A DNA stretch of 64,000 bases from an uncultured virus (IMG/VR IMGVR_UViG_3300030294_000815). Taxonomy: Duplodnaviria > Heunggongvirae > Uroviricota > Caudoviricetes. Shown here piece after piece: positions 10,604 through 63,916 of this stretch; position 1 is the stretch's first letter; every line of letters starts with the position of its first letter. Where the stretch lies: IMG/VR virus record IMGVR_UViG_3300030294_000815; one strand, written 5' to 3'. The notes beneath the pieces are model-generated. The model saw only the letters and a program-made list of their open reading frames with translations. It searched no databases and was not told the DNA's origin. The translations under genes were made by a program, and so were the position numbers.

Positions 10604-11157
10604 GGCTGAATATGACGAAATACGGAACTCTCTTTTTCTGTAAAATAAAATGCAAAATATTTACATTGTAAATCTATGTTAAACTTACAATTATTTCAAA
10701 AAATAATTCAATACTGTCTACATAAAATTAAACAGCCTACAAAACGCTACTACAGGAATATATTGTCAATACAGAGTAAATCAGAGAAAAGGAAGGTTCC
10801 CCGCAAGTATTTAAGAGCAAAATCTAGCCGATTTATTTTGCTACAAGGCTGAATATGAACGAATACAGCGATATTTGGTAAGCCATTTTTCCCATGGATT
10901 CACTTTAAAAATGCACCTCACAGTACTAGCACTTTTTATTTTGTTGTCCAAGAAAAAAAGCTGTTCCAAGCTCCCGTGATTTTTTTCGGTGCGTGTGGGA
11001 AAAAATAACTACAGCAACTAAACTAGATAAACAAGTTAAAGCAAATAGAATCGTAACTAAAGTATAATAGTATTATACTTATATAGTATATATATAATAT
11101 ATTATTAATAATAGTTATATATATTATATATAGTTATATATCTTTATCTTTTAAATA
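10604..11157 (+). repeat. origin-like element L (diverged inverted repeat of 36682-37260)
   Basis: Colinear conserved blocks, an internal GGCTGAATATGA duplicate and a terminal AT-rich tract. Confidence 0.75.
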
Positions 11158-11177
11158 AAGAGTTTCCATTTAGTTCC

Positions 11178-11219
11178 AAAAAAGAAGCTACGAAGAATTA
11201 ACCTCGTAGCTTCTTTTTT
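11178..11219 (-). terminator. terminator of the late/lysis operon
   Basis: AAAAAGAAGCTACGA...TCGTAGCTTCTTTTT. Confidence 0.75.
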
Positions 11220-11220
11220 A

Positions 11221-11475
11221 TTATTTTTTAAGCTTTGCTAACTGTGCTACAATCTGCGTTGATGCTTTTGCAGCTTCTAAAGATACGGCCAAAATATATA
11301 CTGTATCCCGGAACTGCACCCAGCTTGATTTTGTTGTAGCAATTTCTTCGGTCCATGCTGCAATCTTTTTCTGCACTGCTGTAGATAAGGCATCGGTCGC
11401 ACTGCCACTTGCTAAATCAATAATTGTGTTTGTCACCGTTGTAAGTGTGCTTGTATCTGTAGTCGTGTCGCTCAT
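11221..11475 (-). CDS. small lysis-module protein
   Basis: GGAGG RBS; last gene of the late operon. Confidence 0.65.
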   Translation of the reverse strand: MSDTTTDTSTLTTVTNTIIDLASGSATDALSTAVQKKIAAWTEEIATTKSSWVQFRDTVYILAVSLEAAKASTQIVAQLAKLKK

Positions 11476-11490
11476 AATAAATTCCTCCTA

Positions 11491-11745
11491 TTATTTTGTG
11501 ATTAATGGAATAAGTACATAGACCATGTTGAAAAGTCCGCTTACGGCTGCCGCTGAAATAACAGTTGCCACGGGAACCGAAACCCCGTGATTGACTAACA
11601 GATTTTTGTTAAAGTCAATCAGTGTCGTTTTGATTTTCTCGATAGTTGAAGGCGCGCTCACTACAGCCTCGGTTTGTTGCTGTAGAATTGTCGCTTTCAA
11701 TTGGTCCGGTGTCATTGCGTTTAACTGTTCTTGTGTGTAAATCAT
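11491..11745 (-). CDS. small membrane protein of the lysis module
   Basis: C-terminal hydrophobic segment; start overlaps the upstream stop. Confidence 0.65.
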   Translation of the reverse strand: MIYTQEQLNAMTPDQLKATILQQQTEAVVSAPSTIEKIKTTLIDFNKNLLVNHGVSVPVATVISAAAVSGLFNMVYVLIPLITK

Positions 11746-12305: not shown

Positions 12306-12847
12306 TTGATCTGATAGAAAATACCTTTACCACGAACTGTATGACCACCCTCGCCGTCAGCTAGCCCTGGCATGACCCATAAGTCCCACCGTGTTTCGGG
12401 GTCTCCTGAGCCTAAACCGTAGCCGTCAATGTTAGCTGCTTCTGCGTGCGTCAAGAAAAAGTCTGTCGTTAATTCTCGCTCGAATACGTTGCCAAGAACA
12501 GCTACAGCCTGTGCCATCGATTCGACCTGTAAAGCTGTAGGTGGAAATTCGCCTAAATCATTTTCAGTAGCATTGAGACAAGCTGCAAATGCAAGCCCGA
12601 TCGCACCTGAATTTCTATGCCAAGTATGTTCCAAAAGATCAGCAAAACTGTTGATATCAGTGAAATAGCGGCCCTGATCGTCAATGTTAATGTGGTAATC
12701 GCTGAAAAACTGATTATACCTGCCGGCTGACCAGTGGCCGTAAACCATTACCGGTCTGTCATGTTCCGCGGCTGCGCTTTCTACAGCTTCTTTGCTATCA
12801 AGTGCCATTTGCTTAATTTCCGCTAATGTTATTTGTCTAAATCCCAT
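12287..12847 (-). CDS. endolysin, N-acetylmuramoyl-L-alanine amidase (Amidase_2-like)
   Basis: HWSAG, YHINID..G, HTWHRNS..IG and THAE motifs. Confidence 0.8.
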   Translation of the reverse strand: MGFRQITLAEIKQMALDSKEAVESAAAEHDRPVMVYGHWSAGRYNQFFSDYHINIDDQGRYFTDINSFADLLEHTWHRNSGAIGLAFAACLNATENDLGEFPPTALQVESMAQAVAVLGNVFERELTTDFFLTHAEAANIDGYGLGSGDPETRWDLWVMPGLADGEGGHTVRGKGIFYQIKWRKGA

Positions 12848-12862: not shown

Positions 12863-13204
12863 CTACGTCATATTTAATTTGTGCTTAATGTCTTCAATAT
12901 CGCCATGAGTTCCCTTTAAATCACCCCGTATACGAATGAGTTCCTCCTGAATGGCTGTAGCTTTTTCGTCATGCTTTATCATTGTATCCGCTTGTAGTTT
13001 GATGGCTTCTTGTACCGTTGTGAGGGCCTTTGTGCTATTATCTACAGCCTGCTTAAGCTCCGCAAGTAAAACACAGAGCTTTTCGAGAATGGGAGGCAAT
13101 TTCCTAATTAAGTAAATCGCCCCCCATACCACGACTACCGATATAAGCGCCTGAATGGGAATGGATACGGCTTGCTGTGTTGTGAGCCATGTTGTACTAT
13201 CCAT
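12863..13204 (-). CDS. putative holin
   Basis: Single N-terminal TM helix plus coiled coil, immediately upstream of the endolysin. Confidence 0.55.
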   Translation of the reverse strand: MDSTTWLTTQQAVSIPIQALISVVVVWGAIYLIRKLPPILEKLCVLLAELKQAVDNSTKALTTVQEAIKLQADTMIKHDEKATAIQEELIRIRGDLKGTHGDIEDIKHKLNMT

Positions 13205-13219: not shown

Positions 13220-14608
13220 TTATAGCGCTTCCATCTTGAATGAATACACGTCCATACCGACCAACTTGCCGTGTAAGTAACTTGTATTACCGAAATTAGG
13301 GTTTATCCCGACGCCTGCATGCGTAGGTGTGATGTAAGAGTCAGACGCTTCGCTGTATATGTCTGTCCAAAAGTCGCCTGTATTACTTACGGCCCATGTA
13401 CGCGTAGTTCCGTTATCGGTAATGCGCAACCAAAAATTTAGGTTAGCAAATACGGCTACGCCCGAAACACCATTCCAAGTGTCGTCATCAGAAAAGTAGT
13501 TTTTGTTAAAACCAACGCCGTTATCGTTGCCTAGCCAAATTGCAGATGATTTTCCTGAAACGCTATCCCGAATAATTACGCCCATCATGCCCCATTGTTC
13601 CAAAGGTGTAAATCGTCTGATTCTAGTAGTTAATTGCCAACCGCCCGGCCCTCTTGTGATAGGCTTTAACGCATAGCTTAAAACATTAGTGTTTGAGGAC
13701 GTGCCTATGCCAACGATTCTAATGCCGTTTTCAGTGTTTGAGATGTAGCCGCCCGTAGGTTCTTTTATTGTTGCGAAGTCAACTATTTGCGGTTTTGTGA
13801 AGGCCGCTTCCATTGATCCGCCGTTTAAGGTGTTGGGAAGATTAGGAAACACAATGCCTGCGAAAACTGTTCCTGTTCCTGAGTCTGTCGTTGTGGCAGT
13901 CAGTGTCACTGATGTTTTTTCAGAAAAGTTATCCTTAAAAGAAATAACAGAGTGATTTGTATATTGTGCATTGTTCATTTCCTGTATATTATCTCCACTT
14001 AGCACAGGCTTTGTTGTTCCGCCGTAGAAGGAAAACATACCTACTATAAGCCCCGAGGTAGCTACAGCCAAACTTTCAAAAGTCGTATCAAGTGTTCCAG
14101 ATACCACAAGAGTCGTAATGTCTTTTAGTATCGAATTGCGTTGTGTCGTAATGTCCCGTGGTAATCCTGCGACTTCAAATAACGCAACAGCGCCATTTAC
14201 ACTCGAATCAAAAGGAGTTGTTGTGTCGCCGTCCACCGCGAATCTGTATAACAATCTGATGTTATCTTTTGTTGCTGTAGGTGTTCCATTAAGATAAATC
14301 CATCCTGACGGCGAGGCATAACTACCTTCCCAATGTGCCACACAAGCAATTAGCATGTTTCCGGTAGTAGGCGCACTTGCTAATATGGGATTACTGTTAA
14401 CATCAGTGCTCATAGCATGCTGAACTACAGTAGGTGTGTAGGACGTTGAGGGATTGCTACTGCCCCCGCCGGAAGTAATATTTCTTATTTTTGTCGGATA
14501 TGTTGAAAAAGCGTCGGTGTCTGCAACCGGGACGCCTTTTGCGATAATTGCAGCCTTTAGGGCTGCTTTTGTGCTATTAAGTAGCGTAAGACTCGCAGCA
14601 ATACTCAA
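13220..14608 (-). CDS. tail fibre / receptor-binding protein
   Basis: N-terminal KAALKAAIIAKGV...YPTKI anchor motif and beta-rich domains; last tail gene. Confidence 0.65.
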   Translation of the reverse strand: MSIAASLTLLNSTKAALKAAIIAKGVPVADTDAFSTYPTKIRNITSGGGSSNPSTSYTPTVVQHAMSTDVNSNPILASAPTTGNMLIACVAHWEGSYASPSGWIYLNGTPTATKDNIRLLYRFAVDGDTTTPFDSSVNGAVALFEVAGLPRDITTQRNSILKDITTLVVSGTLDTTFESLAVATSGLIVGMFSFYGGTTKPVLSGDNIQEMNNAQYTNHSVISFKDNFSEKTSVTLTATTTDSGTGTVFAGIVFPNLPNTLNGGSMEAAFTKPQIVDFATIKEPTGGYISNTENGIRIVGIGTSSNTNVLSYALKPITRGPGGWQLTTRIRRFTPLEQWGMMGVIIRDSVSGKSSAIWLGNDNGVGFNKNYFSDDDTWNGVSGVAVFANLNFWLRITDNGTTRTWAVSNTGDFWTDIYSEASDSYITPTHAGVGINPNFGNTSYLHGKLVGMDVYSFKMEAL

Positions 14609-15748
14609 TTAACTCACCCCGTTTATTGTGTTTAATGCCGTTTGCAGATCAGCAATAATCGTTGAATTTTTCCAAGTCGCGGCAACAGCATCATAAATGA
14701 TAATGTCATTTGAGGACACTGTCGTTAGCGTTACAGGTAATGCCCCAATATCCGAAGGTGACAAAGCATCTGCCCCGCCTGCGGCATGTGTGCTTTTATG
14801 CGCTGTAGGTGTAAACGTTTCCGGCTTATCCGTCACATTAGCATAAGCTACCGAATCGGCTGACGCCGCACGATCTACTACACCGTTGCCGTTCGTGTCA
14901 TAGACTGATTTTAGCATGTCACCTGTGCCTGAACCGCTTGCTCCATCAGCTCCTTTTTGTGCAAGGACAAACCAGGTATTGTCGTCGGTTCCTGGCGTAA
15001 CACCTGTGCTAGCGACCAGTGCTAAATAAGATGTTCCGTTTAAAGTTACGGCATCATGTAAAACATAGTCTGTAGTCGCACTGTATGTTTTACGCCATTT
15101 TATACCCGGTGCCCCATCAGCGCCTGCTGTTCCCGTATCACCCTTAACGCCTGCCGTTCCGGTGTCGCCTTTATCGCCTTTATCGCCTTTCGCTCCTGTT
15201 GCACCCGCGGTTCCGGTGTCGCCTTTATCGCCTTTTGAACTTAATATACTCCATTTATTGCTATCAGTTCCCGGCGTAACACCTGTCGAAGCAGCTACAG
15301 CAATATATGCTGACCCTTCATAGTACACACCGTCAAACTCAACATACGCGGTCGCTGGGTTATAGGCATTTTTCCATGAAGTAATACCAGTTGAACTCGA
15401 ACCGCCGCTTCCTGACCATGTGATCCAAGCAGCATCATAATACTTGAAAACTTTAGCGGTTTTTTCCCAAACAAGAAGACCGCTGAAAGGCTGGTAAAAA
15501 GTCCAAGAGCCACCGATATATTGTGCTAAGTACGCGTCTTTTCCTGACCACGCCCCTGTGGCACCTGTCGCAATAATATACAGGCTTCCTTCGACAGGCG
15601 TAGTAGGTGGCGCAGTTAAAGCGGAATTTTCGGCCGCTGCCTGTAAAAGCGCATCTACTATCTTAAGGCTTTCGTTATGGGTTATTTCTTTTGACGCCTG
15701 TGCTTGTACTATATAAGGCATATTAAATCTAGGTGTTTCATCACTCAT
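14609..15748 (-). CDS. DUF2793 tail fibre with collagen-like and duplicated carbohydrate-binding-like repeats
   Basis: QAQASKEITHNE...ATGAWSG DUF2793 signature; (GDK/GDT/GAA)n; two ASTGVTPGTD..W repeats. Confidence 0.8.
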   Translation of the reverse strand: MSDETPRFNMPYIVQAQASKEITHNESLKIVDALLQAAAENSALTAPPTTPVEGSLYIIATGATGAWSGKDAYLAQYIGGSWTFYQPFSGLLVWEKTAKVFKYYDAAWITWSGSGGSSSTGITSWKNAYNPATAYVEFDGVYYEGSAYIAVAASTGVTPGTDSNKWSILSSKGDKGDTGTAGATGAKGDKGDKGDTGTAGVKGDTGTAGADGAPGIKWRKTYSATTDYVLHDAVTLNGTSYLALVASTGVTPGTDDNTWFVLAQKGADGASGSGTGDMLKSVYDTNGNGVVDRAASADSVAYANVTDKPETFTPTAHKSTHAAGGADALSPSDIGALPVTLTTVSSNDIIIYDAVAATWKNSTIIADLQTALNTINGVS

Positions 15749-17967
15749 AGTGTAACGTCCTTTCCATATCCTCTACCTCTTGTTTCGTTCATCTGATAAA
15801 TAACAAAGCGCACTGCACTTTGAACTGAACCAAAATCAGCAATCTGCTGTGCCTGTGTATACAATAAAGACGGCGTTGTCACAGCTACTGTTCTGACCGC
15901 AGTTCCGTTTCTATACACGTCGATCGAATATGCTTCGGTAGCTTCTCCTAAAGATGCATCTACGTAGTCATTCCATTCGCCCCCGGTTCTCGTTCGGCGT
16001 ATCCAGGAAACATTTAAGTCCCCGCTATCTCTTACGGCTTTTGCATGACAAGGTGCGAGACATTTACTCATGACGCCTTGTCCGGTAAAGTCTTTTTTGA
16101 CATAAGTATCTGCTGTTTCAACCTGTGTCTTAGGCCCGATTAAGTAGCTGTAGGACGTGTGCCAACTTGCAGCCGGTAATGTTATTCCCCCCAGCGTTCC
16201 TTCTGCCAGTAGCACGAATCGTTCGCCTGCAAGATGCTGCGAAATAGCACTCTCTGTACCGAACATACCTCTTATAAACTCGGTTAATTTGTACGTATTC
16301 CCGCTGACTAATAGAGCATTTTTAAACGAAACAATTTCGTTTCCAATAAGGGCTAAATTTGCGTTTTGTAAGAAATTAAGCTGTTCGATACTCGCCAATG
16401 TTCCCGCAATAAGGGTAACGTTTATGCTTGTAGTATGATCGAATAGCTGTGCAGATTCTTGAGCCATTTGTTCGGCTACCGTTCCCATTACAGCTTTTGG
16501 ATTGTTGTATACGACGAGATCGTACTCGTTGCCGTTATCTTTCGATTGGAAAACATTAGCACCAACATAAATATCCCCCGTTGTTGCAATATACACTGTG
16601 TTATCATCCGTTGTTTTTGTATCTCCCGGCAGTTTTGGTAAGTCCATAATTTCTGCTGTAACATCAGTTGGGACTGTAACAGTCTGTGCACTATTTGTGC
16701 TGTCTGCATATTTAGGGGCTATGGTATACATATCGGCCGTGACGACAACACATTCAACTTTGACTAGACCCGGATCACCGAAGGTTACTTTCTTTAAAAG
16801 AAACAGTACCTTAAGACCTGATGAAAAAGTAACTTCGATTTTATCGCCCGGTTTTAGATGTGCCCACTTGCTCGACAGTGTAGCCGAAAACGATCTTCCG
16901 CTTATCCACTGAGCATATAAAAGCGTATCTACTACAGCCTTTGCGTCTGCATCGTGTAGTGCAAAATTAGCCGTAACCGTAATATCATCTGTGCTAATGA
17001 CATTTCTACGTTTGGCAGTTATCGAACCTTGCTGGTAGTCATTTTCGTAGGATAAGAAATTGAGCGTTACACTACGCGGCATATCATAATCAGAGGGGTT
17101 ATTGAAGTTATACGGTTCATCGGAAGGTGTTGACTCAAAAGCACCTAAATCCTCATAAGGAACTGCATAAACATTCGAGAAATTACTTCGTTTTATAAAT
17201 TCAAGTACACCATCATTTTCACGACCGTCGAATATGAAATAGTTCTGTAGATTTTGTAGCTTTTCCCGTCCTGTCTGACTGGTATCGGTTTTAAATCCAA
17301 GAAGACTTACACTTTCAAGATCGCTGACAACCAATTGAGCCGCATCAATACCGTGTTCCATGCATACATCTGCCACAATATCAGATAGCTTCGTTACAGG
17401 TGTAAAAACTTCTATGGCTAAACTAGGAACACGATTTCCGTATGTGGTGATACTCATATTTTTAAAGACTATATAAGCTAAGCCGCGATGTGCTGGAACA
17501 TTGCCCGCGCCCTGTTTGGCTTCGATATAAGGATCAGGCATTTGCGTTTCATCACCCAAATACAGTGAATAGTCATACTGTGATATATCGATTAGATTTC
17601 CATCAGCCCACACCCGACCTATACCTGATATAGGACCACGGCAAATAGCCACAGCAAACGAGCACGAATATGTGTATGATGTGTATGTAGAACCACCGCC
17701 CTTGCCGCCGGATCGCTGTTTATTAGCATGTTCTACAAAGTGTGTTCCCCATATCAAGTTTGTTTCACAGCGTATACTGCCATAGCACTTAGGTATGGCT
17801 ACGCCTGCGCTTGACGACTGAATAGTTAAAGCTGATAATCGATCGCCTTGTACATTTGTCCCGAACCACTTGCTATCAAGATAATTGCCAAGTAAAGCGC
17901 CTGCTGCCATGAATACCCAATTCCAACCGTTAGCTGCCCCGATTGCTTGTATTGCCATTGTGGCCAT
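15745..17967 (-). CDS. GTA-like host-specificity / central tail protein (Phage-tail_3, megatron-like)
   Basis: SFAVAICRGPI..IGRVWADG, PAHRGLAYIVF, GNRVPSL and WIRRTR motifs; start taken at MATMA. Confidence 0.85.
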   Translation of the reverse strand: MATMAIQAIGAANGWNWVFMAAGALLGNYLDSKWFGTNVQGDRLSALTIQSSSAGVAIPKCYGSIRCETNLIWGTHFVEHANKQRSGGKGGGSTYTSYTYSCSFAVAICRGPISGIGRVWADGNLIDISQYDYSLYLGDETQMPDPYIEAKQGAGNVPAHRGLAYIVFKNMSITTYGNRVPSLAIEVFTPVTKLSDIVADVCMEHGIDAAQLVVSDLESVSLLGFKTDTSQTGREKLQNLQNYFIFDGRENDGVLEFIKRSNFSNVYAVPYEDLGAFESTPSDEPYNFNNPSDYDMPRSVTLNFLSYENDYQQGSITAKRRNVISTDDITVTANFALHDADAKAVVDTLLYAQWISGRSFSATLSSKWAHLKPGDKIEVTFSSGLKVLFLLKKVTFGDPGLVKVECVVVTADMYTIAPKYADSTNSAQTVTVPTDVTAEIMDLPKLPGDTKTTDDNTVYIATTGDIYVGANVFQSKDNGNEYDLVVYNNPKAVMGTVAEQMAQESAQLFDHTTSINVTLIAGTLASIEQLNFLQNANLALIGNEIVSFKNALLVSGNTYKLTEFIRGMFGTESAISQHLAGERFVLLAEGTLGGITLPAASWHTSYSYLIGPKTQVETADTYVKKDFTGQGVMSKCLAPCHAKAVRDSGDLNVSWIRRTRTGGEWNDYVDASLGEATEAYSIDVYRNGTAVRTVAVTTPSLLYTQAQQIADFGSVQSAVRFVIYQMNETRGRGYGKDVTL

Positions 17968-50723: not shown

Positions 50724-51242
50724 TTAAAATCTCCATTTCAAAGCCTCCTGCGCTAAATAACTTGTGGCGTTAAGCACGCCAATAACCGCTAAAAGATACA
50801 ATACGCTAAAGGCTATAGCCCGAAACACTTGATACACAGTATTGCTTACAGGTAATCCGCGTTGCTTTCTATTACCTTCATATATGCAATAGGCCATTGT
50901 GTTAAGTGCGCCAAATAGTAGAGCGTAGTTAAACAGTCGGTCAGCGTAATAATTAAAACTTGCTGTATCGATCGAAAATGAAAATGTGACACCGTGAAAC
51001 CAAAGTTGCAGCATAGCCGCGTTGAAAAGTACACAACATTCAATAAACCCTACAGCGTATATGCACGCTTTAACCCACCGTTTTTTAAAAGTGTTGGATA
51101 CCGTTTTCCCGTGATTTAACCCCGTCATTATGACGGTATGTGCCACCATGACTAGCACGACTGCAATTAAAACGTAGATGCTCAATTCCACTAATACGCT
51201 GCTGTCATACACTAGTGTCAATAAATTAATATCAAGATTCAC
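50724..51242 (-). CDS. multi-pass membrane protein
   Basis: About four hydrophobic segments. Confidence 0.65.
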   Translation of the reverse strand: MNLDINLLTLVYDSSVLVELSIYVLIAVVLVMVAHTVIMTGLNHGKTVSNTFKKRWVKACIYAVGFIECCVLFNAAMLQLWFHGVTFSFSIDTASFNYYADRLFNYALLFGALNTMAYCIYEGNRKQRGLPVSNTVYQVFRAIAFSVLYLLAVIGVLNATSYLAQEALKWRF

Positions 51243-54589: not shown

Positions 54590-55330
54590 TTATGCTTCGA
54601 TACCGAAATCTGCCGGGTTAAACATTGCTACAGCTTCAAATACATACGCGAGATACGTGTCACTGCCCGAGCCTTTTTCTTCTTTGTTTGTAATGCGTGT
54701 AATAACTGCATTAATGCCTGTATGTTTTGGAATACTTTTTGATTTGTCGCCTTTAAATAAACGTGAAGCATATTGCCCAAAGCTGTAAGCACCTGTTTGC
54801 GGAAAGAATAAAATGTAGATAGCCGGGTCTTCTTTGATTGAGTCAACGAGCACGGTATAAGCAGCGTAATTGATTTTAATGTCTACAATTGAATAACGTT
54901 CGGAAGCTCCTGGAACAGCTTCAAAGTATTCAGTGAGTTTTTGTGCAGCTTCTTCTTGTGTCTTTTCAGCAACAATAATTTGACCGTCTTCCGGTGAGCC
55001 TTTAACGCCCCACAACATATAGCGTGTTTCGCCTTTTGCTATAACCACATCGAGTGTATCCCCAAATTCAACGGTTTCATCATTACGGAGCACGAACACA
55101 CCTTTTTTGTTCATTTTCAAGGATTCGCCCATTCTCACAAAATCAAAATCCATGTCGGCATTTACAGCTTTGAAGGCTTCTTGTTCGGCTTTCATGATCT
55201 GCGCTACGTAACTTGTTGTCTGCGCCGGAGTTGCGACCACCTGATTATTTACTGTTGCTACCTCAGCTTTTGGTGCTGTGTTCGTACCCTCAGTTGTTGG
55301 TTTTACTACGGTTTCTTTTGCAATTGCCAT
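54590..55330 (-). CDS. putative single-stranded DNA-binding / recombination protein
   Basis: Position next to the primase-helicase; acidic C-terminus; strong AGGAGG RBS. Confidence 0.5.
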   Translation of the reverse strand: MAIAKETVVKPTTEGTNTAPKAEVATVNNQVVATPAQTTSYVAQIMKAEQEAFKAVNADMDFDFVRMGESLKMNKKGVFVLRNDETVEFGDTLDVVIAKGETRYMLWGVKGSPEDGQIIVAEKTQEEAAQKLTEYFEAVPGASERYSIVDIKINYAAYTVLVDSIKEDPAIYILFFPQTGAYSFGQYASRLFKGDKSKSIPKHTGINAVITRITNKEEKGSGSDTYLAYVFEAVAMFNPADFGIEA

Positions 55331-55531: not shown

Positions 55532-56074
55532 TTACTTCTTATCAATAAAAGTAGCTGTAAGGTCAGCAATATGCAATTTAACAGCTAACGGATATTTGTC
55601 AAACGCTTGTGTTATAGCGTATTTTCCACTTGCCTCACTCGCGTCGCTAGTCCCCATATGCCAACGAATTGCGGCTGCCTCTTCATCTGTGACATTAAAG
55701 AATTTTGTTACAAGGTAAAGTGATTTTTCACCGTGACCCATCGGGAGTTGATCTTCTATAGCATAGTAAGGAACTTGCTGCCAATGTCCGTCTTCGTCTT
55801 TAACATTACGTGATGATATTATATAGAAATTTTCCTTACAAATATCATGCACAAGAGCAACAAATTGTGCTGATTCTGTCTGTTCCATATGCGACGCTAC
55901 AGCTAATGAGTGCGCGCATAAGCCTCCTTTTTCTGCACCGTGATACTTTGTTGAGGCAGGTGCTTCAAAGAAGTCTGTGCCTTCGAGCCATTGCATAAAC
56001 TTTTCGTTCATGCCATTACGGCTCAATTCGCTAATAAAACGGACACGATTAGCATAAATCTCTTTTTCTGTCAT
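55532..56074 (-). CDS. HD-domain phosphohydrolase
   Basis: APAS.KYH....GGL..HSL.V, HD.CK, GHGEKS, IRWHM and AD motifs. Confidence 0.9.
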   Translation of the reverse strand: MTEKEIYANRVRFISELSRNGMNEKFMQWLEGTDFFEAPASTKYHGAEKGGLCAHSLAVASHMEQTESAQFVALVHDICKENFYIISSRNVKDEDGHWQQVPYYAIEDQLPMGHGEKSLYLVTKFFNVTDEEAAAIRWHMGTSDASEASGKYAITQAFDKYPLAVKLHIADLTATFIDKK

Positions 56075-56327: not shown

Positions 56328-58013
56328 TTAATATTTAAGACCTTCGAGTAATTTACAAAGGTCTTCTTGCGTAGTTCGTTCTTTTTTAGGACATTTCAAA
56401 CCTAATCTTGTATAAACAGTTCTTCTTGACGAGTACTGTGATTTTAAAACACCGACTTTATAATCTACGTAATCCCACCAAGTGGCTATTTTATTAGGGT
56501 TTTTCGGGTCGCTTCGCATGATACGACCGATTGCCTGTTCTACTGAAGCACCATTTTTACCGCCGGCCGCGTCACCACGCTTCGGTGTTGTCAAATGTCC
56601 ATGCTGTAGAAAGGGAAGGTCTAAGCCCTCTTGTACAAGTTGTCCGGTGGCAATTAAAATATCAATACAACCTTTGTTTGCTCTATCCATAATATCTGCA
56701 CGTCGCACTTTTGAAATGTCCCATGCTTTGAATTCTTCCGCGGTATACTGACTCGCCCTGATTTTCCAGCGTCTTGCACTTTTATCGTACTTACATTCGA
56801 CAGCTTTTCCCATTTCGACAAGCTTTTTCGCCTCCTTTTCACTACTACATACAATCCAACTCAGTCGTTGCAGTGGACCATGTACTACAGCTATGCGCGG
56901 TACTTGTTTTCCTTTTTTTGTGTACTCTTCTCGTATACACTTTTCAAGTTTATGGCAATACGGCTTGCTATCTGCTATAACAAGCTGATAGCCTTTTTGC
57001 TCAGAAACCGTTTGAGCAATAAGTTCGGCTCGTTCATCGTCCGCAATTAGCTTGTCTAATAGTTCCCGGTAGTCAAGCTGCTCGCCGCCCGCATCGACTG
57101 AATTAATTGCATTTCGAATTGAGGCTTGTTCGTAACTAAATTCCGTAAAAATGAACCTAATTTCCGGCTTTACGAGTTTTCCTGTTTCGTATAAATCTGC
57201 ACGAGATAGCTCATAAAGTTTAGGTCCAACACCCATATACATATACATTTCAAGACCATCTTTACGGTCAGGCGTTGCCGTAAGTCCTACAACTCTACAC
57301 GCCTTTAGCTTACCTATTGTGTCTAAAAAAGACGTTGCAGGCAGGTGATGGCATTCATCTACAATAACAACACCTACTATCGCGTTAAGCTGTTCAATCA
57401 GATCAGGGCGCGATTGCAGTGTTTGCAACGAGGCTATGATAAGATTACCGTCGCCCCATGTACTTTTTCCACCGCCAAACATTCCAATTTCACCAATGTC
57501 AGGCATATACTGCTTTGCCCGATCAGCCGCTTGCTTCATGAGATCGATCGTATGCGTGAGCCAAAGAGCTGTAACGATACTGTCATGAATGATACGAAGT
57601 CCGATTAACGTTTTACCGCCCCCGGCTGGTGCCACTATGCAGCCACTATTCCAAATGCCGTACTCTACAGCCTTTAATTGTTGCTCACGCGGTTCGTAAC
57701 GCGGGTTCCATTTTCCGAAATTCGCACTACGGCCAAGTGTGACATCATCTGATTGACAGTATTTCATATCTTGATAGCCGTCTACAATAAGCTTCCATAG
57801 TCTGCCGTAGTAACCTCGTGGCAGGATGTATATGCCGCCCTCTTGACTGTATAGCTTTAACTTCGGGTCACAGCCCCATGTAGGCTGTCTACGCACTTTT
57901 CTTTTCTTATACTCAGGATTATCAATGGTCAAGTCTTTTGTGAACTGTAGCACGAGCGGAGCAGGCGCGCCACTGATTCTAATGTTATTCGATACAATTA
58001 CCTGCGTAGCCAT
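56328..58013 (-). CDS. SF2 DEAD/DEAH-box helicase
   Basis: PAGGGKT, DECHH, TATP.R.DG, EGLD and QAIGRIMR motifs. Confidence 0.9.
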   Translation of the reverse strand: MATQVIVSNNIRISGAPAPLVLQFTKDLTIDNPEYKKRKVRRQPTWGCDPKLKLYSQEGGIYILPRGYYGRLWKLIVDGYQDMKYCQSDDVTLGRSANFGKWNPRYEPREQQLKAVEYGIWNSGCIVAPAGGGKTLIGLRIIHDSIVTALWLTHTIDLMKQAADRAKQYMPDIGEIGMFGGGKSTWGDGNLIIASLQTLQSRPDLIEQLNAIVGVVIVDECHHLPATSFLDTIGKLKACRVVGLTATPDRKDGLEMYMYMGVGPKLYELSRADLYETGKLVKPEIRFIFTEFSYEQASIRNAINSVDAGGEQLDYRELLDKLIADDERAELIAQTVSEQKGYQLVIADSKPYCHKLEKCIREEYTKKGKQVPRIAVVHGPLQRLSWIVCSSEKEAKKLVEMGKAVECKYDKSARRWKIRASQYTAEEFKAWDISKVRRADIMDRANKGCIDILIATGQLVQEGLDLPFLQHGHLTTPKRGDAAGGKNGASVEQAIGRIMRSDPKNPNKIATWWDYVDYKVGVLKSQYSSRRTVYTRLGLKCPKKERTTQEDLCKLLEGLKY

Positions 58014-58543
58014 TCCCTCCCTTCGATGAATTTAACTAATGGCCGTAAGTCGTAAACATCGACTAAGAATTTCTCTTTCTCTTGGCAAGACGCTAACCGG
58101 GGTATTTCTACAGCCAGGCCTTCGTAAACCGCGTCGCTTATCTCCTTTATAGACAAGTACATTCGGTTTTTTCTTTCGCACAAGTTCAGAAACGTACTGA
58201 TTGCAATGGCATAAGCTGTATCGTAAGTGTCGTCTACAAAGGATACGAGCACCATTCCGAAGTTATTGCCGCCTGCGTGCATAAAATCAATCAAGCCGCC
58301 AAGTTGGTTCGTTCGTAAATCGGATATGCACAACATTCCGTCAGCCTTACGCTTTAATTCGTTTAACAAGCGGTCTTCACTAAGAAGCACTATTTCGTCG
58401 GCAGGTCGGCTACCGCAGTCATCAGATATTCGCATACGCCAGCAATCCGGGATAAGCCGCCAGCTTGCTTTTATTTCATTTTGAAAGGCTTCGCCTCTTG
58501 CACGTTTCTCGTACTGTGACTCGGAACTGTGACTCGTTCTCAT
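57998..58543 (-). CDS. RecU-like Holliday junction resolvase
   Basis: RG..FQ.E, R..D, PAD....ELK and Q motifs. Confidence 0.65.
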   Translation of the reverse strand: MRTSHSSESQYEKRARGEAFQNEIKASWRLIPDCWRMRISDDCGSRPADEIVLLSEDRLLNELKRKADGMLCISDLRTNQLGGLIDFMHAGGNNFGMVLVSFVDDTYDTAYAIAISTFLNLCERKNRMYLSIKEISDAVYEGLAVEIPRLASCQEKEKFLVDVYDLRPLVKFIEGREWLRR

Positions 58544-58890
58544 TTTTCAACAACTTCTTTATACCCTGATCTCCAGCCTTCGCTTAAGCACACCTTCGGC
58601 GCTTTCAGAGTTTTTTGAGCGTAAATTTCAACATCAGCATACCAGTCTAATTCCTTTTGGGCCTCCTCAATGATCTGTTTTGTCATTTCCTGACTACTAT
58701 CTGCACTAAGCTGTAATGTTGCAAGTAACGCCTTGCGTTTAGCTTCAAAGTCTTCTTTGTAATCTACAGGTTCTAAAGCTTCTAACGCAAGAACTTCTCC
58801 AGCTTGTTTTGCCGCCAATTTTTCAAGAACAACCTGTAATGGAACGCTAAACTCTGATTCATCAGGCATTGTGATTATTACATATTTCAT
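58540..58890 (-). CDS. hypothetical protein
   Basis: GGAGG RBS; in operon. Confidence 0.6.
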   Translation of the reverse strand: MKYVIITMPDESEFSVPLQVVLEKLAAKQAGEVLALEALEPVDYKEDFEAKRKALLATLQLSADSSQEMTKQIIEEAQKELDWYADVEIYAQKTLKAPKVCLSEGWRSGYKEVVEK

Positions 58891-59539: not shown

Positions 59540-60100
59540 CTATTTGGTGTTTTCAGACATTTTCTGCATTGCTTTTAAAATCACTTCTAAAGGTGACATT
59601 TGGCTTTCTGCGCCCTTCCTAAGCACAGCCTTTATATCGTCCTTACTTATGGGTACACCTTCATTTAATGCAGCAAGGTACTTTTCATGATCTACGTGAA
59701 CTCCCTGCATCATAGCATCTTGAATAAGCTTAGAAGGATCAACTGCGTATTTATCGACCAACTGTTTTAAAGTGGCTCCGTTTTCAAAAGCGTTAGCGCC
59801 AACACGCATAGCCCCTAGTGCTGCCGTAGTGGATAATTTTGGCGTTCTTACGCTAACCTGTGCTCCCTCGCGACTCGTAGGAAAACCGCCTTCTTTTATC
59901 TTTCTTAGTTCTTCGGAAAACTGAACGGCCACAGCTACTTCAGCAGGCGTCATTGTTGCCAGGATAGCTGCCGTAAGTTCCAGTTTTTCTGCTCTCGTTG
60001 TTTCTGCGTCAACCTGCGCGCCGCCTTTGCACATATGTGCTAGAATAAATGTTCCTGTTTCTACTTCTTTCTTAGTTCTGTCATTTTTAGCTTTTAACAT
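59540..60100 (-). CDS. hypothetical protein
   Basis: Coupled to the nuclease gene. Confidence 0.6.
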   Translation of the reverse strand: MLKAKNDRTKKEVETGTFILAHMCKGGAQVDAETTRAEKLELTAAILATMTPAEVAVAVQFSEELRKIKEGGFPTSREGAQVSVRTPKLSTTAALGAMRVGANAFENGATLKQLVDKYAVDPSKLIQDAMMQGVHVDHEKYLAALNEGVPISKDDIKAVLRKGAESQMSPLEVILKAMQKMSENTK

Positions 60101-61065
60101 GCTTGCACACTCCCTATAAGTTCTAATGTTTTATCAATAACGTTTTGTTGTATTTTTTCCTGCTTCGAAATCTGATCGATAATATCAGGAATGTTTAACT
60201 TTACAGCCTTTCCATCTGCCTGTATTAAAGCTGTAAATTCTTCCATTGCATATTGCCGTTCTTGATTTTCTACGATCTTGCTACGGTCGAGCACTTCGTC
60301 GCCCGGTTTAGCACATTTAAGCGGTACTAAGCTTATTTCTTCCGCTGCTGTGTCAATAATGGCAACTTGAATTGTTCTGTCTATTTCTGCCTGACTTGCT
60401 GAAATTCGCATCAAGGCTCCTGGATTACAAAATAGTTTTCCATCGTGACGCTTAATGACGCCAAAACCCGTATGATCGTGACCTGATAAAATGATCTTTG
60501 CGTTTGTGTCCACATGGTACAAATTTGTTGAGCGCCCCTCATACGGTAATTCGTGATCTAAAAGCATGCCATGCACTACGAGAATATTTGTAAGCTGTTC
60601 ATACTCGCACATTTGGTAGCCGACTGGACTTGTGTCAATATCTGTTCTGTACGGATTAAACCCTACGTGAACTGTGTCATCCAAGCTATTCGGTTCCGGG
60701 TTATGCTTCCTAATATCCTGCGAAATCTGAATAACATGGAAGTTAGGCACGAGTAGTTCTAAAAGCTGTAGACTGGTTCGGCCAAAAGTATCAAGATTAT
60801 AACCATACACATCGTGATTACCTATCGTACAGTAAATCGGACAAGGCGCATCTTTAAACACCTTAGCAAATTCAAGCAGGGTACTGATTGCAACTTCCGG
60901 GCTATGAAAAATATCTCCCGGCTGTAAAATCGCTTCAACCTTGTTAACGGCTGCTATCTGCCAAACCTCGTAAAGCTTCAGCTTGCAGGCTTCTTTGTAA
61001 TCATCAATACGGTTTCTTGGATTGTTGCCGCGGATATGAATGTCACCCATGAATAGTAGCTTCAT
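60094..61065 (-). CDS. SbcD/Mre11-like metallophosphoesterase nuclease
   Basis: GDIH, GDIF, GNHD, VHG, SGHDH and NPGAL.R motifs. Confidence 0.9.
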   Translation of the reverse strand: MKLLFMGDIHIRGNNPRNRIDDYKEACKLKLYEVWQIAAVNKVEAILQPGDIFHSPEVAISTLLEFAKVFKDAPCPIYCTIGNHDVYGYNLDTFGRTSLQLLELLVPNFHVIQISQDIRKHNPEPNSLDDTVHVGFNPYRTDIDTSPVGYQMCEYEQLTNILVVHGMLLDHELPYEGRSTNLYHVDTNAKIILSGHDHTGFGVIKRHDGKLFCNPGALMRISASQAEIDRTIQVAIIDTAAEEISLVPLKCAKPGDEVLDRSKIVENQERQYAMEEFTALIQADGKAVKLNIPDIIDQISKQEKIQQNVIDKTLELIGSVQAC

Positions 61066-61331
61066 TTGATAATCAACTCACGTATTGCTATTTTTTCTAC
61101 ATCTTCAACGCCAATAACATGTTTGCATGTATCGCCTTTCTGATCTAAGCTTATGCATACTAATTTCAATGGGTCCACATGTTGCACTAAAGAAATAACG
61201 GCATCTTTGTAAGGAATATTGGCGCCTTTAACTTCATAATTTCTATACTCTGCATTTCTTCTAAGCATAAGTGCCTGCCCTATTTTTATATTTGAAACAT
61301 CAAACTGTAACGCCTGGATTGTTATTGCCAT
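61062..61331 (-). CDS. hypothetical protein
   Basis: In operon. Confidence 0.55.
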   Translation of the reverse strand: MAITIQALQFDVSNIKIGQALMLRRNAEYRNYEVKGANIPYKDAVISLVQHVDPLKLVCISLDQKGDTCKHVIGVEDVEKIAIRELIIK

Positions 61332-61650
61332 CGTATTTTACCTCCTTCGCAACAGTCGCAGCCTTTTTATCGCAGGGCAAATATACCGCCATTCGTTGAA
61401 CTATTACGTTACCGTCAATAGCGTCTTGCAATGCTACATACTGTTTGCCTTCAATAGTCATAAAAACAATTTGGTCAGCCGTGGTTTCTACAAAAAATGC
61501 TAACGCCGATTCACCTAATTTAATATCTACTAATGACCGACTTGTTAACTTATTGGCTACCGTTAATTCTTTAAGGTCACCCTTTTTCGCATATCCTTTG
61601 TTAAAACGTGGCGCGTTAATGATAATAGCCTGTTCTGATAATTCGCTCAT
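61300..61650 (-). CDS. hypothetical protein
   Basis: ATGA overlap. Confidence 0.55.
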   Translation of the reverse strand: MSELSEQAIIINAPRFNKGYAKKGDLKELTVANKLTSRSLVDIKLGESALAFFVETTADQIVFMTIEGKQYVALQDAIDGNVIVQRMAVYLPCDKKAATVAKEVKYDGNNNPGVTV

Positions 61651-62285
61651 ACTACTTTTACCTCCGATTTATTGTTATACGTTACGTGAAAACTTCTTTC
61701 GCCAACCGAAGCGAGTGTTTCGTTATGCGTGACAAGAATTATCTGCCTGTGAAATTTACCTGCATACTCTTTTAAGAAGAACGCTACATTTTGCGAATAC
61801 TCAGCCGAAATATGTTTGCCAACTTCATCTAAAAACAGAGCACCTTGCACGCCTTCCAGTTCTGCAATTGCCAGCCTTAAAGCAAGCGTAATTACGTCGA
61901 TTATCCCACCGCCATGACCGAAGTCCGGCTGTTCCAATTTCGTGATTACGTCATCGTTTTGCAGATAGTAGTCTACTTCGGGCCGGTTCGATCTTACTGT
62001 CAATTCAAGCCAAAACCTATAATTCGCGTCAAATACGACTGACAAAGCAGAAGTAACAATTTCCTCGATTTTTGTTTTAGCTTGCTTTCTTGCAAAATCA
62101 CTCGTCTTTTGAAGCAAGACTGTGACCTGTTCAAAAAGCTGTAAATCATCTTTCGTTTTGGCGAGTTCATCTACAGCCTTTTGAAGCTGCATTTCAAGAA
62201 TTCGTTTTTCGCCTAACTTTATATTCAAAACATTCGTTCTATTTTGAATTTCCCTTTTCAATGTTGCCGACTTATAAACATTCAT
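61647..62285 (-). CDS. SbcC/Rad50 C-terminal half (signature, Walker B)
   Basis: GHGGG, LRLA, LFLDE..KH.S and IILVTH motifs; start likely MNVYK. Confidence 0.85.
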   Translation of the reverse strand: MNVYKSATLKREIQNRTNVLNIKLGEKRILEMQLQKAVDELAKTKDDLQLFEQVTVLLQKTSDFARKQAKTKIEEIVTSALSVVFDANYRFWLELTVRSNRPEVDYYLQNDDVITKLEQPDFGHGGGIIDVITLALRLAIAELEGVQGALFLDEVGKHISAEYSQNVAFFLKEYAGKFHRQIILVTHNETLASVGERSFHVTYNNKSEVKVV

Positions 62286-62289
62286 ATCG

Positions 62290-62523
62290 TCACACTTCCG
62301 GGAGAAGTTTTTCGACTGTTGCCAAGTCTGCCGCAATCTGTGTTTCGAGTTCTTCAATCTTTGCCTCAATTGTCAAAGGCGTAACACCAAGTTCCTTCAT
62401 TTTGCTTTCGACTTCCACAAGAGCCTCTTGTGCGGCTGCTAGTTTTGTTTCAGCTACCGTCTTTGCCTGCTCCGCTACTTTTACTTTTTCTTCTAGTGCT
62501 AAAATCTTACTTGCTGTGTCCAT
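62290..62523 (-). CDS. small coiled-coil protein between the SbcC halves
   Basis: Heptad pattern; overlaps the stop of the N-half. Confidence 0.65.
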   Translation of the reverse strand: MDTASKILALEEKVKVAEQAKTVAETKLAAAQEALVEVESKMKELGVTPLTIEAKIEELETQIAADLATVEKLLPEV

Positions 62524-63916
62524 GACTATCCCCTTTCACGACTTGTTTGCACATCGGGCAAATATCTGTTTCTTTCCATAAATCAGCCAACTTTGTGGCG
62601 GCTTCCGTAAAACTGGCCGCTGCCGCATCATTTCGGCGCTTTGAAACAGTTACAAAGTTTTCTGTATCCGAGTATAGGCTGTTTATTTTGTAGAAGTGCT
62701 GTAGCAACTCCTGACGTTCCTTACACGCCACTAACTTTGCCTTGGCTTGTATTTGTATCAGCACCTTATCCAACGTGGCACTGTACTCGTCTGACAGCGA
62801 CAATAATCTACCGTACTCATTAAAAACGATTTGTAACTCACTACGATGACTTTCGGCTTCCGTTAATCGTAATAAGGCGGGTTTTACTCTTAAAAGGTCC
62901 AGGGCTGTGTCTAAACTGTTTTTCGCTTCGGCTTCTTGATCTTTCCTGACACTATAAATAACGGCCAACGTTTTTAGGTTTTGTTTTAATGTAGCACTAT
63001 CGCGCTGCCTTTTTAACATTTCGGCGGCTTCCTTGATACACTTTAACTCTCCTAGTAAACTTCTCTGATCCGTTATAATTACAGCTTGTTTTCTATACTG
63101 CTGTAGTAAGCTTGTTAATAACGAAATGTTTACAGCGCCACTTTTAGCCGTAGCCATGTACTGTTGCGCTTGACGTACTCCGGCAAAAGATAGAATAGCC
63201 TGTTCATATCTTTCTATACGCTCCTTTGATGTAGCGTGCACATCGGCGGCATTACGCAGTTCGGCTTGTTTAGCCCCGTTTAGTTCAACAACCTTCATCA
63301 TTTCTTCACATTCATCTAGCAATTGTTTTACAGTGTCTAGGTGTAAATAGTTCTGTAAAGCTGTAATTTTTTCGACCTGCTCTATTTTGTACTGTTTCTG
63401 CGTTGCCTGTAATGCGTGTGTACTTTTGGAAGCCTCTTTCATTGCAAGGTCGACTATTTCGGCGTTTGCCAGTTTGCCAAGAACTTTGGCTCCGGCACTT
63501 GGCGATTCACTAAGTAAAAATGGTGCATCTAATTGATATGCGAAATTTAGTACGTTTGCAAAATCGCCGAAAGTGCTCTTGTCAATTCCAAGTAATTGTT
63601 TAACCTCGTCAGGTACCTCAGCTTTCTCATATACGAAAGTTTCTAAGCCCCGGCTAATGCTGTATGAAGTTTTTGTTCCTTTTCGTAATTTTGTGATCGT
63701 AGCTTCGTCTGTAACGATTGTGACCTCGGCATACCCTACAGCCTTATTAACAAAACTGTCGCCTGACGGTTCACCTAATGCTACCCACTTGATCGCTCGA
63801 AGGATTGCTGATTTACCGGAGTCCGTAGCACCTGTTATGACATTTAACCCTGCACACAAGTCAAGGTGTGTGTCTACATGTGATTGGAACCCCGTAGCGC
63901 TAATTGATAGTATCAT
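62507..63916 (-). CDS. SbcC/Rad50 N-terminal half (Walker A, coiled coil, Zn hook)
   Basis: FQSH, GATDSGKSA, YQLD (Q-loop) and terminal CPMC. Confidence 0.9.
   Translation of the reverse strand: MILSISATGFQSHVDTHLDLCAGLNVITGATDSGKSAILRAIKWVALGEPSGDSFVNKAVGYAEVTIVTDEATITKLRKGTKTSYSISRGLETFVYEKAEVPDEVKQLLGIDKSTFGDFANVLNFAYQLDAPFLLSESPSAGAKVLGKLANAEIVDLAMKEASKSTHALQATQKQYKIEQVEKITALQNYLHLDTVKQLLDECEEMMKVVELNGAKQAELRNAADVHATSKERIERYEQAILSFAGVRQAQQYMATAKSGAVNISLLTSLLQQYRKQAVIITDQRSLLGELKCIKEAAEMLKRQRDSATLKQNLKTLAVIYSVRKDQEAEAKNSLDTALDLLRVKPALLRLTEAESHRSELQIVFNEYGRLLSLSDEYSATLDKVLIQIQAKAKLVACKERQELLQHFYKINSLYSDTENFVTVSKRRNDAAAASFTEAATKLADLWKETDICPMCKQVVKGDSHGHSK

Follow-up and report, generated by a model that had tools for sequence, protein, structure and literature searches.

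What maintains a single heptamer at high density along the whole of a prophage, and what reads it? We examined this question in a metagenomic contig of 64,000 nucleotides from an uncultured member of the Caudoviricetes (IMG/VR record IMGVR_UViG_3300030294_000815; the whole of this stretch, at its full length, is termed the window). A preliminary description, made from the sequence alone, had reported that the word CTACAGC, which reads GCTGTAG on the opposite strand, is strongly over-represented throughout the prophage, with about 40 copies on the plus strand and about 28 on the minus strand. An exact-match scan found 71 copies in the window (41 on the plus strand and 30 on the minus strand), compared with 5.17 ± 2.42 copies, and at most 12, in 100 dinucleotide shuffles. 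The prophage holds 70 of these copies (40 plus, 30 minus), spanning positions 11009 to 63742, which makes the earlier count a slight undercount; every position that it named is present in the scan, as is the single copy in the first 10 kb, at 7329, which lies inside a 6-kb island. The density in the prophage corresponds to approximately one site per 0.76 kb, or one per 1.3 kb on the plus strand and one per 1.7 kb on the minus strand. The prophage and its exact CTACAGC matches are listed below by coordinates and strand, with remarks where a site is mentioned in the text; TCTACAGCCTT is the optimum of an extended form of the word.

10263-64000, no strand: visible prophage, 70 CTACAGC sites, 1.3 per kb (left edge from the tRNA-3′ repeat and phage genes)
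11009-11015, plus: non-coding site
11378-11384, minus
11661-11667, plus: inverted pair with 11679
11679-11685, minus: pairs with 11661
12502-12508, plus: inverted pair with 12534
12534-12540, minus: pairs with 12502
12781-12787, plus
12954-12960, minus
13042-13048, plus
14062-14068, plus
14274-14280, minus
14802-14808, minus
15295-15301, plus
16147-16153, minus
16932-16938, plus
18632-18638, plus
19753-19759, minus
19989-19995, minus
20239-20245, plus
21682-21688, minus
22773-22779, plus: exact TCTACAGCCTT, inverted pair with 22811
22811-22817, minus: pairs with 22773
23744-23750, minus: inverted pair with 23787
23787-23793, plus: pairs with 23744
23937-23943, plus: inverted pair with 23993
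23993-23999, minus: pairs with 23937
24618-24624, plus
25799-25805, minus
27018-27024, minus: inverted pair with 27049
27049-27055, plus: pairs with 27018
27252-27258, minus: last exact minus-strand site before a 12-kb gap
29990-29996, plus
30625-30631, plus
30997-31003, plus
31868-31874, plus
32450-32456, plus
32938-32944, plus
36364-36370, plus: non-coding, exact TCTACAGCCTT, in what is presumed to be the cos region, upstream of the small terminase gene
39303-39309, minus: exact TCTACAGCCTT
39590-39596, plus
39987-39993, minus
40323-40329, minus
41277-41283, plus
41753-41759, plus
42631-42637, plus: non-coding
42853-42859, plus
45080-45086, plus
45787-45793, plus: inverted pair with 45814
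45814-45820, minus: pairs with 45787
46724-46730, plus
47651-47657, minus
48887-48893, minus: exact TCTACAGCCTT
49295-49301, minus: Tyr-Ser kept in relatives through other Ser codons
49915-49921, plus
50246-50252, plus
51050-51056, plus
52119-52125, minus
53030-53036, minus: exact TCTACAGCCTT
53837-53843, minus
54628-54634, plus
55897-55903, plus
56603-56609, minus
56885-56891, plus: the only site kept in most of the ~60% identical relatives
57665-57671, plus: exact TCTACAGCCTT
58108-58114, plus
60765-60771, minus: aligned position in contig G005 reads TTACAGC
62171-62177, plus: exact TCTACAGCCTT
62698-62704, minus
63100-63106, minus
63736-63742, plus: shared with G005, alone amongst 16 alignable sites

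CTACAGC is the top-ranked heptamer of the prophage under Markov models of order 1, 2 and 3 (70 copies against 5.1, 7.8 and 15.8 expected); under a maximal-order model the excess is absorbed into the word's own sub-words, which does not amount to a refutation. The enrichment extends to TTACAGC/GCTGTAA, which had also been described as frequent (39 copies against 9.2 expected), and to ATACAGC (16 against 6.9). GTACAGC and most of the other one-base variants occur at about the expected frequency, and depletion is limited to variants in which CTGCAG or CTAG is present. When the literature was searched for the word, only primer matches came up, and searches on phage Chi and on over-represented phage oligonucleotides or heptamers returned no phage-private, strand-symmetric heptamer of this kind.

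To account for codon usage we relied on our own longest-ORF (open reading frame) calls in place of a curated annotation; these comprise 68 coding sequences and 49 kb. The excess persists under codon-preserving shuffles of the kind proposed with the preliminary description: the 66 sites in coding sequences compare with 12.9 ± 3.2 (maximum 23 in 300 shuffles) when synonymous codons are shuffled within genes, and with 8.4 ± 2.8 (maximum 17 in 300) when codon order is shuffled. Under the synonymous null CTACAGC ranks first of all heptamers (64 against 12.2, z = 14.8), and the heptamers ranked after it overlap it. Five of the six combinations of frame and orientation lie several-fold above this null, with CTACAGC on the coding strand at 10, 15 and 7 sites in phases 0, 1 and 2 (expected 1.16, 3.71 and 1.07) and GCTGTAG at 32 sites in phase 0 (6.65) and 2 in phase 1 (0.17); the sixth, which would place a TAG stop codon in frame, has one site against 0.25. 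The same preference is visible in the spelling of individual peptides, since 52 of 140 Ala-Val pairs are written GCT-GTA, 10 of 20 Leu-Gln pairs followed by C are written CTA-CAG (CTA accounts for only 152 of 1321 Leu codons) and 7 of 14 Tyr-Ser pairs preceded by C are written TAC-AGC. While 67 of the 70 sites lie within genes (32 sense and 35 antisense), the 4,609 bases of non-coding DNA contain three sites against 0.36 expected; these are 11009, 36364 and 42631, previously noted as non-coding and the only three not fully within ORF calls. Because the word exceeds expectation irrespective of reading frame and orientation, and outside genes as well, it is very likely that some protein reads it.

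The enrichment is private to the phage and absent from the sampled host DNA. No copies were found in the upstream host DNA (L018, 9.84 kb of new sequence) or in the corresponding locus of strain L019 (20.9 kb), and the non-redundant host sample of 21,411 bases, which is small, contains none against a Markov expectation of 1.13, so that the density of the phage is not repeated there; the neighbouring 6-kb island has one copy. Four Bacillaceae chromosomes that carry related prophages have 0.07-0.10 copies per kb compared with 1.3 per kb in the phage, close to the count of the reversed word as a control, with the exception of a B. cereus-group genome at 2.2 times the control. A population test for purifying selection on the sites, made with four peat-metagenome runs, found 9 variant positions in 20 kb, none of them at a site, a number too small to give power. 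Given that the excess survives the codon- and protein-preserving shuffles, that the host sample lacks the word and that it is the top word of the related contig G005 (see below), the earlier proposal of a phage-wide cis signal is supported, and it is very probable that selection acts at the DNA level on CTACAGC as a phage-private, genome-wide signal.

Bases adjoining the heptamer are also constrained. On the strand that reads CTACAGC, the three positions to either side are rich in T and poor in G, irrespective of whether that strand is sense or antisense (P = 3e-5 to 2e-3). Where it is sense, T reaches 0.39 against 0.25 (P = 3e-5) and G 0.13 against 0.24; where it is antisense, T is 0.43 against 0.32 and G 0.11 against 0.19. 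The T-rich 3′ flank is repeated in G005 and around the TTACAGC variant, and the G-poor 5′ positions recur only in G005. The motif is thus approximately 11 bp wide and strand-asymmetric, with a fuller form close to HHN-YTACAGC-YTT and the optimum TCTACAGCCTT, which occurs 7 times exactly in the prophage and 22 times with at most one mismatch, against 0.81 expected.

Sites are distributed evenly amongst the modules of the phage (tail 1.43, head 1.32, middle block 1.19, early genes 1.18 and replication 1.17 per kb), with a denser 2-kb lysis region that contains 8 sites. The only long stretch without a site is formed by the terminase genes (33425-35954; 0 sites in 2.5 kb, about 3 expected), which could reflect recent acquisition of this module or chance. 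Spacing of the exact sites is near random, with a coefficient of variation (CV) of 0.91 overall and 0.78 on the plus strand. When the T variant is included, the plus strand carries 62 sites with a maximum gap of 2.7 kb and a CV of 0.76 (P = 0.015), and the minus strand carries 47 sites with a CV of 0.80 (P = 0.08). As post hoc observations, all seven site pairs that are at most 60 bp apart are inverted (Monte Carlo P ~0.012), and 23 of 30 neighbouring pairs between 11 and 27 kb are in opposite orientation; over all neighbouring pairs the numbers are 40 opposite and 29 same, which is not significant.

Turnover of sites in related phages

The proteins of the replication module are approximately 60% identical to those of the Bacillus phages phBC6A51, PHBA67-T and vB_BboS-125. 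Single-protein scans of genome, viral and metagenome collections returned as closer relatives only G005, a 66-kb viral contig, and an identical 5-kb fragment; homologues of the MCM protein at 76% and 71% identity were also detected. G005 encodes an MCM protein with 66% identity and shares only the replication module with the window phage. Relatives of the structural module are at most 50% identical, have Gram-negative hosts and are uninformative in this respect. In G005 CTACAGC again ranks first under both nulls (31 copies against 6.5 in the Markov model and 12.8 in the synonymous model), and yet only one of the 16 alignable window sites is identical there, the aligned genes of G005 having 14 sites of their own. 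This implies that density rather than position is selected. Consistent turnover is seen in the ~60% identical relatives, where about 1 in 20 mapped sites is conserved and where, at several sites, the amino acids are kept with different codons; individual sites arise and disappear both by a switch between synonymous codons and by replacement of an amino acid.

Raw counts in a further 23 IMG/VR records of MCM-primase phages (407 copies of CTACAGC against 40 of the reversed word) might be taken to indicate a trait of the whole family, an interpretation that we rejected since most of this excess is removed by a codon-aware test on the replication loci. A real excess in this test is confined to G005/L012, L041, L040, L035 and vB_BboS-125, and none was found in the replication loci of L008, L011 and L034/L037. 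In a quick tree the window phage and G005 form a clade with 100% support, L035, L040 and L041 one with 99% support, and vB_BboS-125 a single branch. CTACAGC ranks first in the window phage and G005 and is in moderate excess in L035/L040/L041 and vB_BboS-125, with host and primase lineage confounded. Four B. cereus-group control phages that lack the module have 1, 6, 7 and 7 copies (z = -0.8 to 1.3). Of the extended 11-mer, allowing at most one mismatch, five MCM-primase relatives have 10, 7, 6, 9 and 5 copies against a null of 0.8-1.7 each, a total of 37 against 6.2 (5-9 times the Markov null), and four same-host controls have 2, 0, 2 and 1, a total of 5 against 2.4.

The preliminary description had also suggested examining related MCM-primase phages for enriched heptamers of their own. 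Some relatives do have them, but so do control phages without the module. Amongst the relatives, G022 is enriched in GATCTTA (63 against 14.1), vB_BboS-125 in CTGCAGC (79 against 24.5) and GTCGATA (26 against 3.4), L009 in CGACGTA (14 against 1.7) and L008 in ACTGGAG (17 against 3.2); the control phage TP21-L (L060) is enriched in GCGGGCC (10 against 0.8). GATCTTA, CTGCAGC, CGACGTA, ACTGGAG and GTCGATA span both orientations and several frames, the top words of other relatives are plain dicodons, and none of the first four words is enriched in the window phage. We considered and discarded two related schemes, namely an ancestral CTGCAGC displaced by PstI-type avoidance, given that in eight relatives CTGCAGC was never the sequence opposite a mapped site, and a family-wide motif CTNCAGC, which is inconsistent between genomes. 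L009 and L010 lie approximately 62 kb apart on one 156-kb Neobacillus contig and have identical site positions and word statistics; this contig seems to carry two copies of the prophage region.

Candidate readers of the word

The genes common to the window phage and G005 are a replication and recombination set together with a conserved 246-residue protein; three small, uncharacterised proteins (45191-45553, 55532-56074 and 58540-58890) are shared by these two alone. The shared set includes the leading candidate for the reader, an archaeo-eukaryotic primase (AEP) fused to an MCM helicase:

47771-50230, minus: family A DNA polymerase (Pfam/PHROGs)
51482-54571, minus: AEP primase-MCM helicase fusion, 1029 residues, leading candidate reader (Pfam MCM and DNA_primase_S)
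54590-55330, minus: 246-residue conserved protein beside the primase-helicase (model pLDDT, predicted local distance difference test, 74; Foldseek)
56328-58013, minus: superfamily 2 (SF2; ResIII/DEAD) helicase (Pfam/PHROGs)
57998-58543, minus: Holliday-junction resolvase-like protein (phrog_843)
60094-61065, minus: SbcD/Mre11-like nuclease (Pfam/PHROGs)
61647-63916, minus: SbcC/Rad50-like ATPase in two ORFs, 62507-63916 and 61647-62369 (Pfam/PHROGs)

The enrichment itself is robust. The preliminary description had named four functions without preferring any of them: a primase site, a Chi-like site, a self mark and a packaging or nicking signal. Our best guess, held tentatively, is a primase signal. 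We suggest that the reader may be the replisome of the phage, with the AEP domain of the fusion taking the word on a single-stranded template as its start or recognition signal. The primase is the only shared enzyme with a precedent for reading template words, because of what is reported for BcMCM, ORF904 of pRN1 and NrS-1. The fusion is ~60% identical to BcMCM of phBC6A51, in which primase activity is assigned to residues 1-400, with a preference for dNTPs and Mn, and synthesis is described as starting with dA-dG on a 3′-GTCC-5′ site set in T tracts (PMC3273815). Words described for other AEP primase-polymerases are GTG for pRN1 ORF904, and TTTGGTTA and GTGR for NrS-1, the 8-mer of the latter having subsequently turned out to be flexible (PMC8718748). 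PrimPol, like BcMCM, is listed with a 3′-GTCC-5′ template word. In keeping with these enzymes, the window phage has an AEP primase joined to a helicase in a single protein, the word is strand-asymmetric, and sites are present on both strands at a spacing on the scale of Okazaki fragments, with a strand-specific context; both strands of the word offer a 3′-TC-5′ start compatible with dA-dG, and the T-rich context on one strand fits a template signal. A structure model of the N-terminal 430 residues of the fusion predicts an AEP core followed by a helical region at about residues 215-324, and matches 41 PDB chains at E ≤ 0.001, including PriS, LigD-Pol, RepB′ and PrimPols.

In such a scheme the shared module would constitute a T4-style recombination-dependent replisome comprising a gp32-like single-stranded-DNA-binding protein (SSB), the primase-helicase, PolA, a second helicase, an Mre11/Rad50-like nuclease and a resolvase. 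Forks running both ways would make either strand a lagging-strand template, so that sites would be needed on both. In a speculative register that agrees with the published BcMCM data, with TCTACAGCCTT read 3′ to 5′, the T at +3 would be cryptic and the T at +2 would template the first nucleotide; synthesis would begin with a 5′-AG dinucleotide, the word being copied into the first ~10 nt of the primer. The 246-residue protein is, judged by its structure model, probably the gp32-like SSB: Foldseek aligned it weakly with the T4 and RB69 gp32 cores (probability ~0.9, TM, template modelling, score ~0.3) and with the oligonucleotide-binding folds of RPA and BRCA2, and its best PDB match is a chain of the phiC31 integrase excisive synapse with its recombination directionality factor (9teh_I, E = 7e-4), which hints at a link between gp32-like SSBs and that factor. 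A more ambitious version, which we put forward as speculation, is that the AEP-MCM primase needs the ~11-nt word TCTACAGCCTT, that the genome is consequently forced to carry it about every 1 kb on each strand, that the private words of related phages co-evolve with the template-reading domain, and that the word would thereby serve as a replication-level self signal excluding host DNA from priming by the phage.

Several observations weigh against the primase as reader. To our knowledge no published primase needs a 7-11-nt word that its own genome accumulates, and the mapped T7 primase pentamers are barely enriched in T7 (94 against 66, 141 against 84 and 85 against 99), so that there is no precedent for accumulation of a primase word; as a positive control, T7 counts neither for priming nor as a refutation of it. 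PriL/PriCT matches at residues 208-298 of the fusion are below the Pfam cut-off. The exact minus-strand sites leave a 12-kb gap after 27252, which is filled by four copies of GCTGTAA, and the sites of G005 are unevenly spaced (CV ~1, gaps up to 18.7 kb) and denser in the first 34 kb (23 of 31). Amongst relatives, the codon-aware test on 28 replication loci gives 152 copies against 105.5, with 17 of the 28 above expectation; B. cereus-type loci have no excess (2-3 copies against ~2.8), even though their primase is ~60% identical, as in enriched lineages; and in the second enriched clade (G022, G027 and G028) CTACAGC ranks only 43, 58 and 16 amongst many biased words and is not accompanied by T-rich flanks. 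The top words of the control phages reach z = 4.8-10.3, which calibrates the statistic, and the host comparison is limited to a sample of 21.4 kb. The priming assays given for BcMCM involve M13 and one oligonucleotide only (PMC3273815).

A different class of reader would be a modification or defence enzyme, of an asymmetric Type IIG, Type III or BREX (bacteriophage exclusion)-like system or an orphan methyltransferase, for which the word is a self mark and modified sites protect or label the phage DNA. Non-palindromic 6-7-mers built on a CAG core, to which the word belongs, are typical of N6-adenine enzymes of the Type IIG, III and BREX-like classes. Moreover the phage is under strong restriction pressure: CTGCAG, CAGCTG, CGTACG and TGATCA occur once each in the prophage, AGATCT is absent, and asymmetric pentamers are avoided as well (CCAGA 7 against 59 expected, CATCC 17 against 60), a pattern that suggests several restriction systems. 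In cyanobacteria the over-represented word HIP1 is linked to orphan methyltransferases (PMC4390886), and a further ~8 kb of the phage falls beyond the window. Yet no methyltransferase or other modification gene, nor any sequence-specific dsDNA-binding protein, was found in the 53 kb of visible phage (68-70 ORFs searched with Pfam and PHROGs, and 18 unexplained ORFs compared with NCBIfam), targets of restriction and modification are usually depleted in phages, and the sampled host DNA lacks the word. Neighbours of the deamination type are not depleted (TTACAGC 39 against 9.2, CTATAGC 11 against 5.6, CTACAGT 12 against 5.2), and there is therefore no signature resembling very-short-patch repair. 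We regard this possibility as unlikely. A dsDNA-binding protein of the phage seems similarly improbable as the reader; such a protein might silence or repress genome-wide, as at stoperators, help to condense or package the DNA, or resemble a partition protein. An ~11-bp motif with asymmetric flanks fits a protein footprint, many small phage ORFs are without an assigned function, and the seven close inverted pairs, together with the alternation between 11 and 27 kb, could suit dimeric or looping binders. However, the sites lie almost entirely in genes without preference for the sense strand, the genes common to the window phage and G005 include no recognisable binder of this type, and the alternation is a post hoc observation that is not significant over the whole prophage.

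The preliminary description had also offered a Chi-like site. Such a signal would tame a helicase-nuclease, either host AddAB/RecBCD or a phage enzyme of the Mre11/Rad50 type (we know of no Chi-like word for nucleases of the latter type), and would so protect linear or rolling-circle DNA and promote recombination-dependent replication. The density is comparable to that of Chi-rich lambdoid phages, exemplified by phage LLS, for which Chi is given as the commonest k-mer of the genome at 1 per 1.86 kb (PMC12315714). CTACAGC is likewise the commonest k-mer, its sites turn over while density is kept, the phage has nuclease and resolvase genes, and the seven sites to the left of the presumed cos (29990-36364) share one orientation, although by a rough estimate this run is not significant. 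The overall 40:30 orientation and the even density of 1.2-1.4 per kb differ from the Chi-rich phages as published, where orientations of 20:3 and 32:0 and clustering toward one end are described and recombination genes are reported to be lacking (PMC12315714); the window phage has several such genes (SbcD-like, SbcC-like, resolvase-like and helicase), which are not of the lambdoid single-strand annealing protein/exonuclease type. A Chi of the host itself should be abundant in host DNA, and if it were as dense as in E. coli (1 per 4.6 kb), a sample of 21.4 kb would lack it with a probability of ~0.01. The Chi-like option is thus disfavoured by orientation, by distribution and by the counts in host DNA, and we consider it quite unlikely. 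It is least probable, and in our view very improbable, that the word has no reader at all and is a by-product of codon-pair bias, restriction-site avoidance or context-dependent mutation bias. In favour of this are the heptamers at z = 5-13 over the codon null that relatives and control phages often have, the relation of CTACAG to the avoided CTGCAG by a single transition, in conjunction with the richness of vB_BboS-125 in CTGCAGC, and the 2.2-fold level of the word in a B. cereus-group chromosome. Against it stand an excess that depends neither on frame nor on strand and extends to non-coding DNA, a flank signature common to two phages, the lack of any mapped window site that aligns to CTGCAGC in a relative, the non-depletion of one-mismatch neighbours, which leaves no conversion signature, and the control phages of the same host group, which are at codon expectation. 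In addition, avoidance of ~15-30 palindromic sites cannot yield ~60 extra copies of a heptamer.

Integration site, host and neighbouring genes

Positions 1-4062 of the window are chromosomal DNA. The flank encodes a ureidoglycolate dehydrogenase with 86-87% identity to Sporomusa and Anaerosinus proteins, and because of this similarity the host is assigned to a Sporomusaceae-type Negativicute; runs that contain the window DNA are peat, freshwater-sediment and permafrost metagenomes. A gene of the chloramphenicol-acetyltransferase family (Pfam CAT, E = 1e-40) is also present in this flank, at 2554-3210. The left junction of the phage is defined by two copies of an 84-nt direct repeat:

4063-4146: second tRNA 3′-fragment copy, repeat partner of 10179-10262, 88% identical
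10179-10262, minus: incomplete tRNA 3′ end marking the left junction of the phage, a copy of the attachment site (84-nt direct repeat)
33425-35954, minus: terminase large (gpA type) and small subunit genes (Pfam/PHROGs)

The repeat terminates in ...CCACCA on the minus strand and hence represents a tRNA 3′ fragment; ARAGORN detected no intact tRNA in the window. Strain L019, which is 96% identical, has the repeat in single copy, and positions 4147-10178 therefore form a separate integrated island, with the phage starting at about 10263. The arrangement looks like tandem integration of the 6-kb island and the phage at one tRNA site, and the island is possibly a defence island. It encodes a 935-residue superfamily 1 helicase that ends in a DUF2726/nuclease-like domain (5365-8172). 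A Lon_C-like fragment (8273-8521) and a protein with hints of tetratricopeptide repeats (8540-9541) are encoded there as well. A 45-nt direct repeat (10579-10623 and 10822-10866, 84% identical, 243 bp apart) is situated after the attachment repeat and ahead of the first phage genes, where most of the DNA is non-coding.

Pfam and PHROGs searches of the ORFs identify the phage as a siphovirus, which continues past the right edge of the window for ~8 kb. Its head module is lambda-type, with a gpA terminase, a lambda-family portal, a ClpP-type protease and homologues of gpD and gpE; the tail module is similar to those of gene transfer agents; and the early module contains PolA, the AEP primase-MCM helicase fusion, the SF2 helicase, the resolvase-like protein and the SbcD- and SbcC-like proteins. 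A baseplate-hub/tail-assembly protein (18429-20741) has pentapeptide-repeat inserts between an N-terminal domain resembling phiJL001 Gp84 and a C-terminal domain resembling BR0599.

Comparison with known systems

Over-represented words have previously led to the machinery that reads them, as in the cases of Chi and RecBCD, uptake sequences, and KOPS (FtsK orienting polar sequences) and FtsK. If CTACAGC is read by the primase, this would be the first example of a primase with a long template specificity that leaves a visible imprint on an entire genome, a proposal that is directly testable because the homologous BcMCM is available in purified form and has been assayed. Were the word a modification or defence mark, the phage would offer a rare instance in which selection favours such sites and does not remove them. 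Either way the word provides a sequence handle for spotting this phage lineage, and its reader, in metagenomes.

Mycobacteriophage stoperators offer a parallel, in which an asymmetric word of ~13 bp is repeated many times over the genome of a temperate phage and is read by a phage protein. Stoperators are mostly intergenic and co-oriented with transcription, whereas CTACAGC sites are predominantly genic (67 of 70) and divided between sense (32) and antisense (35). Site-specific nicks of the T5 type differ in affecting one strand, CTACAGC sites being on both. Chi in phages LLS and MD8, as described in Genome Res 2025 (PMC12315714), resembles CTACAGC in being the commonest k-mer, in occurring about once per 1-2 kb and in having its density selected. 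Those words are host Chi sites and abundant in the host, whereas CTACAGC is absent from the sampled host DNA, and the near-single orientation, the clustering at one end and the lack of recombination genes described for LLS and MD8 do not apply to the window phage (PMC12315714). The DNA uptake sequences of Neisseria, the uptake signal sequences of Pasteurellaceae and HIP1 are similar in their genome-wide distribution, occurrence in all frames and on both strands, and positional turnover, but they mark cellular genomes, while CTACAGC is confined to the phage. Since the word is phage-private, absent from the sampled host, strand-symmetric and independent of frame, its reader is probably encoded by the phage and lies outside the described systems.

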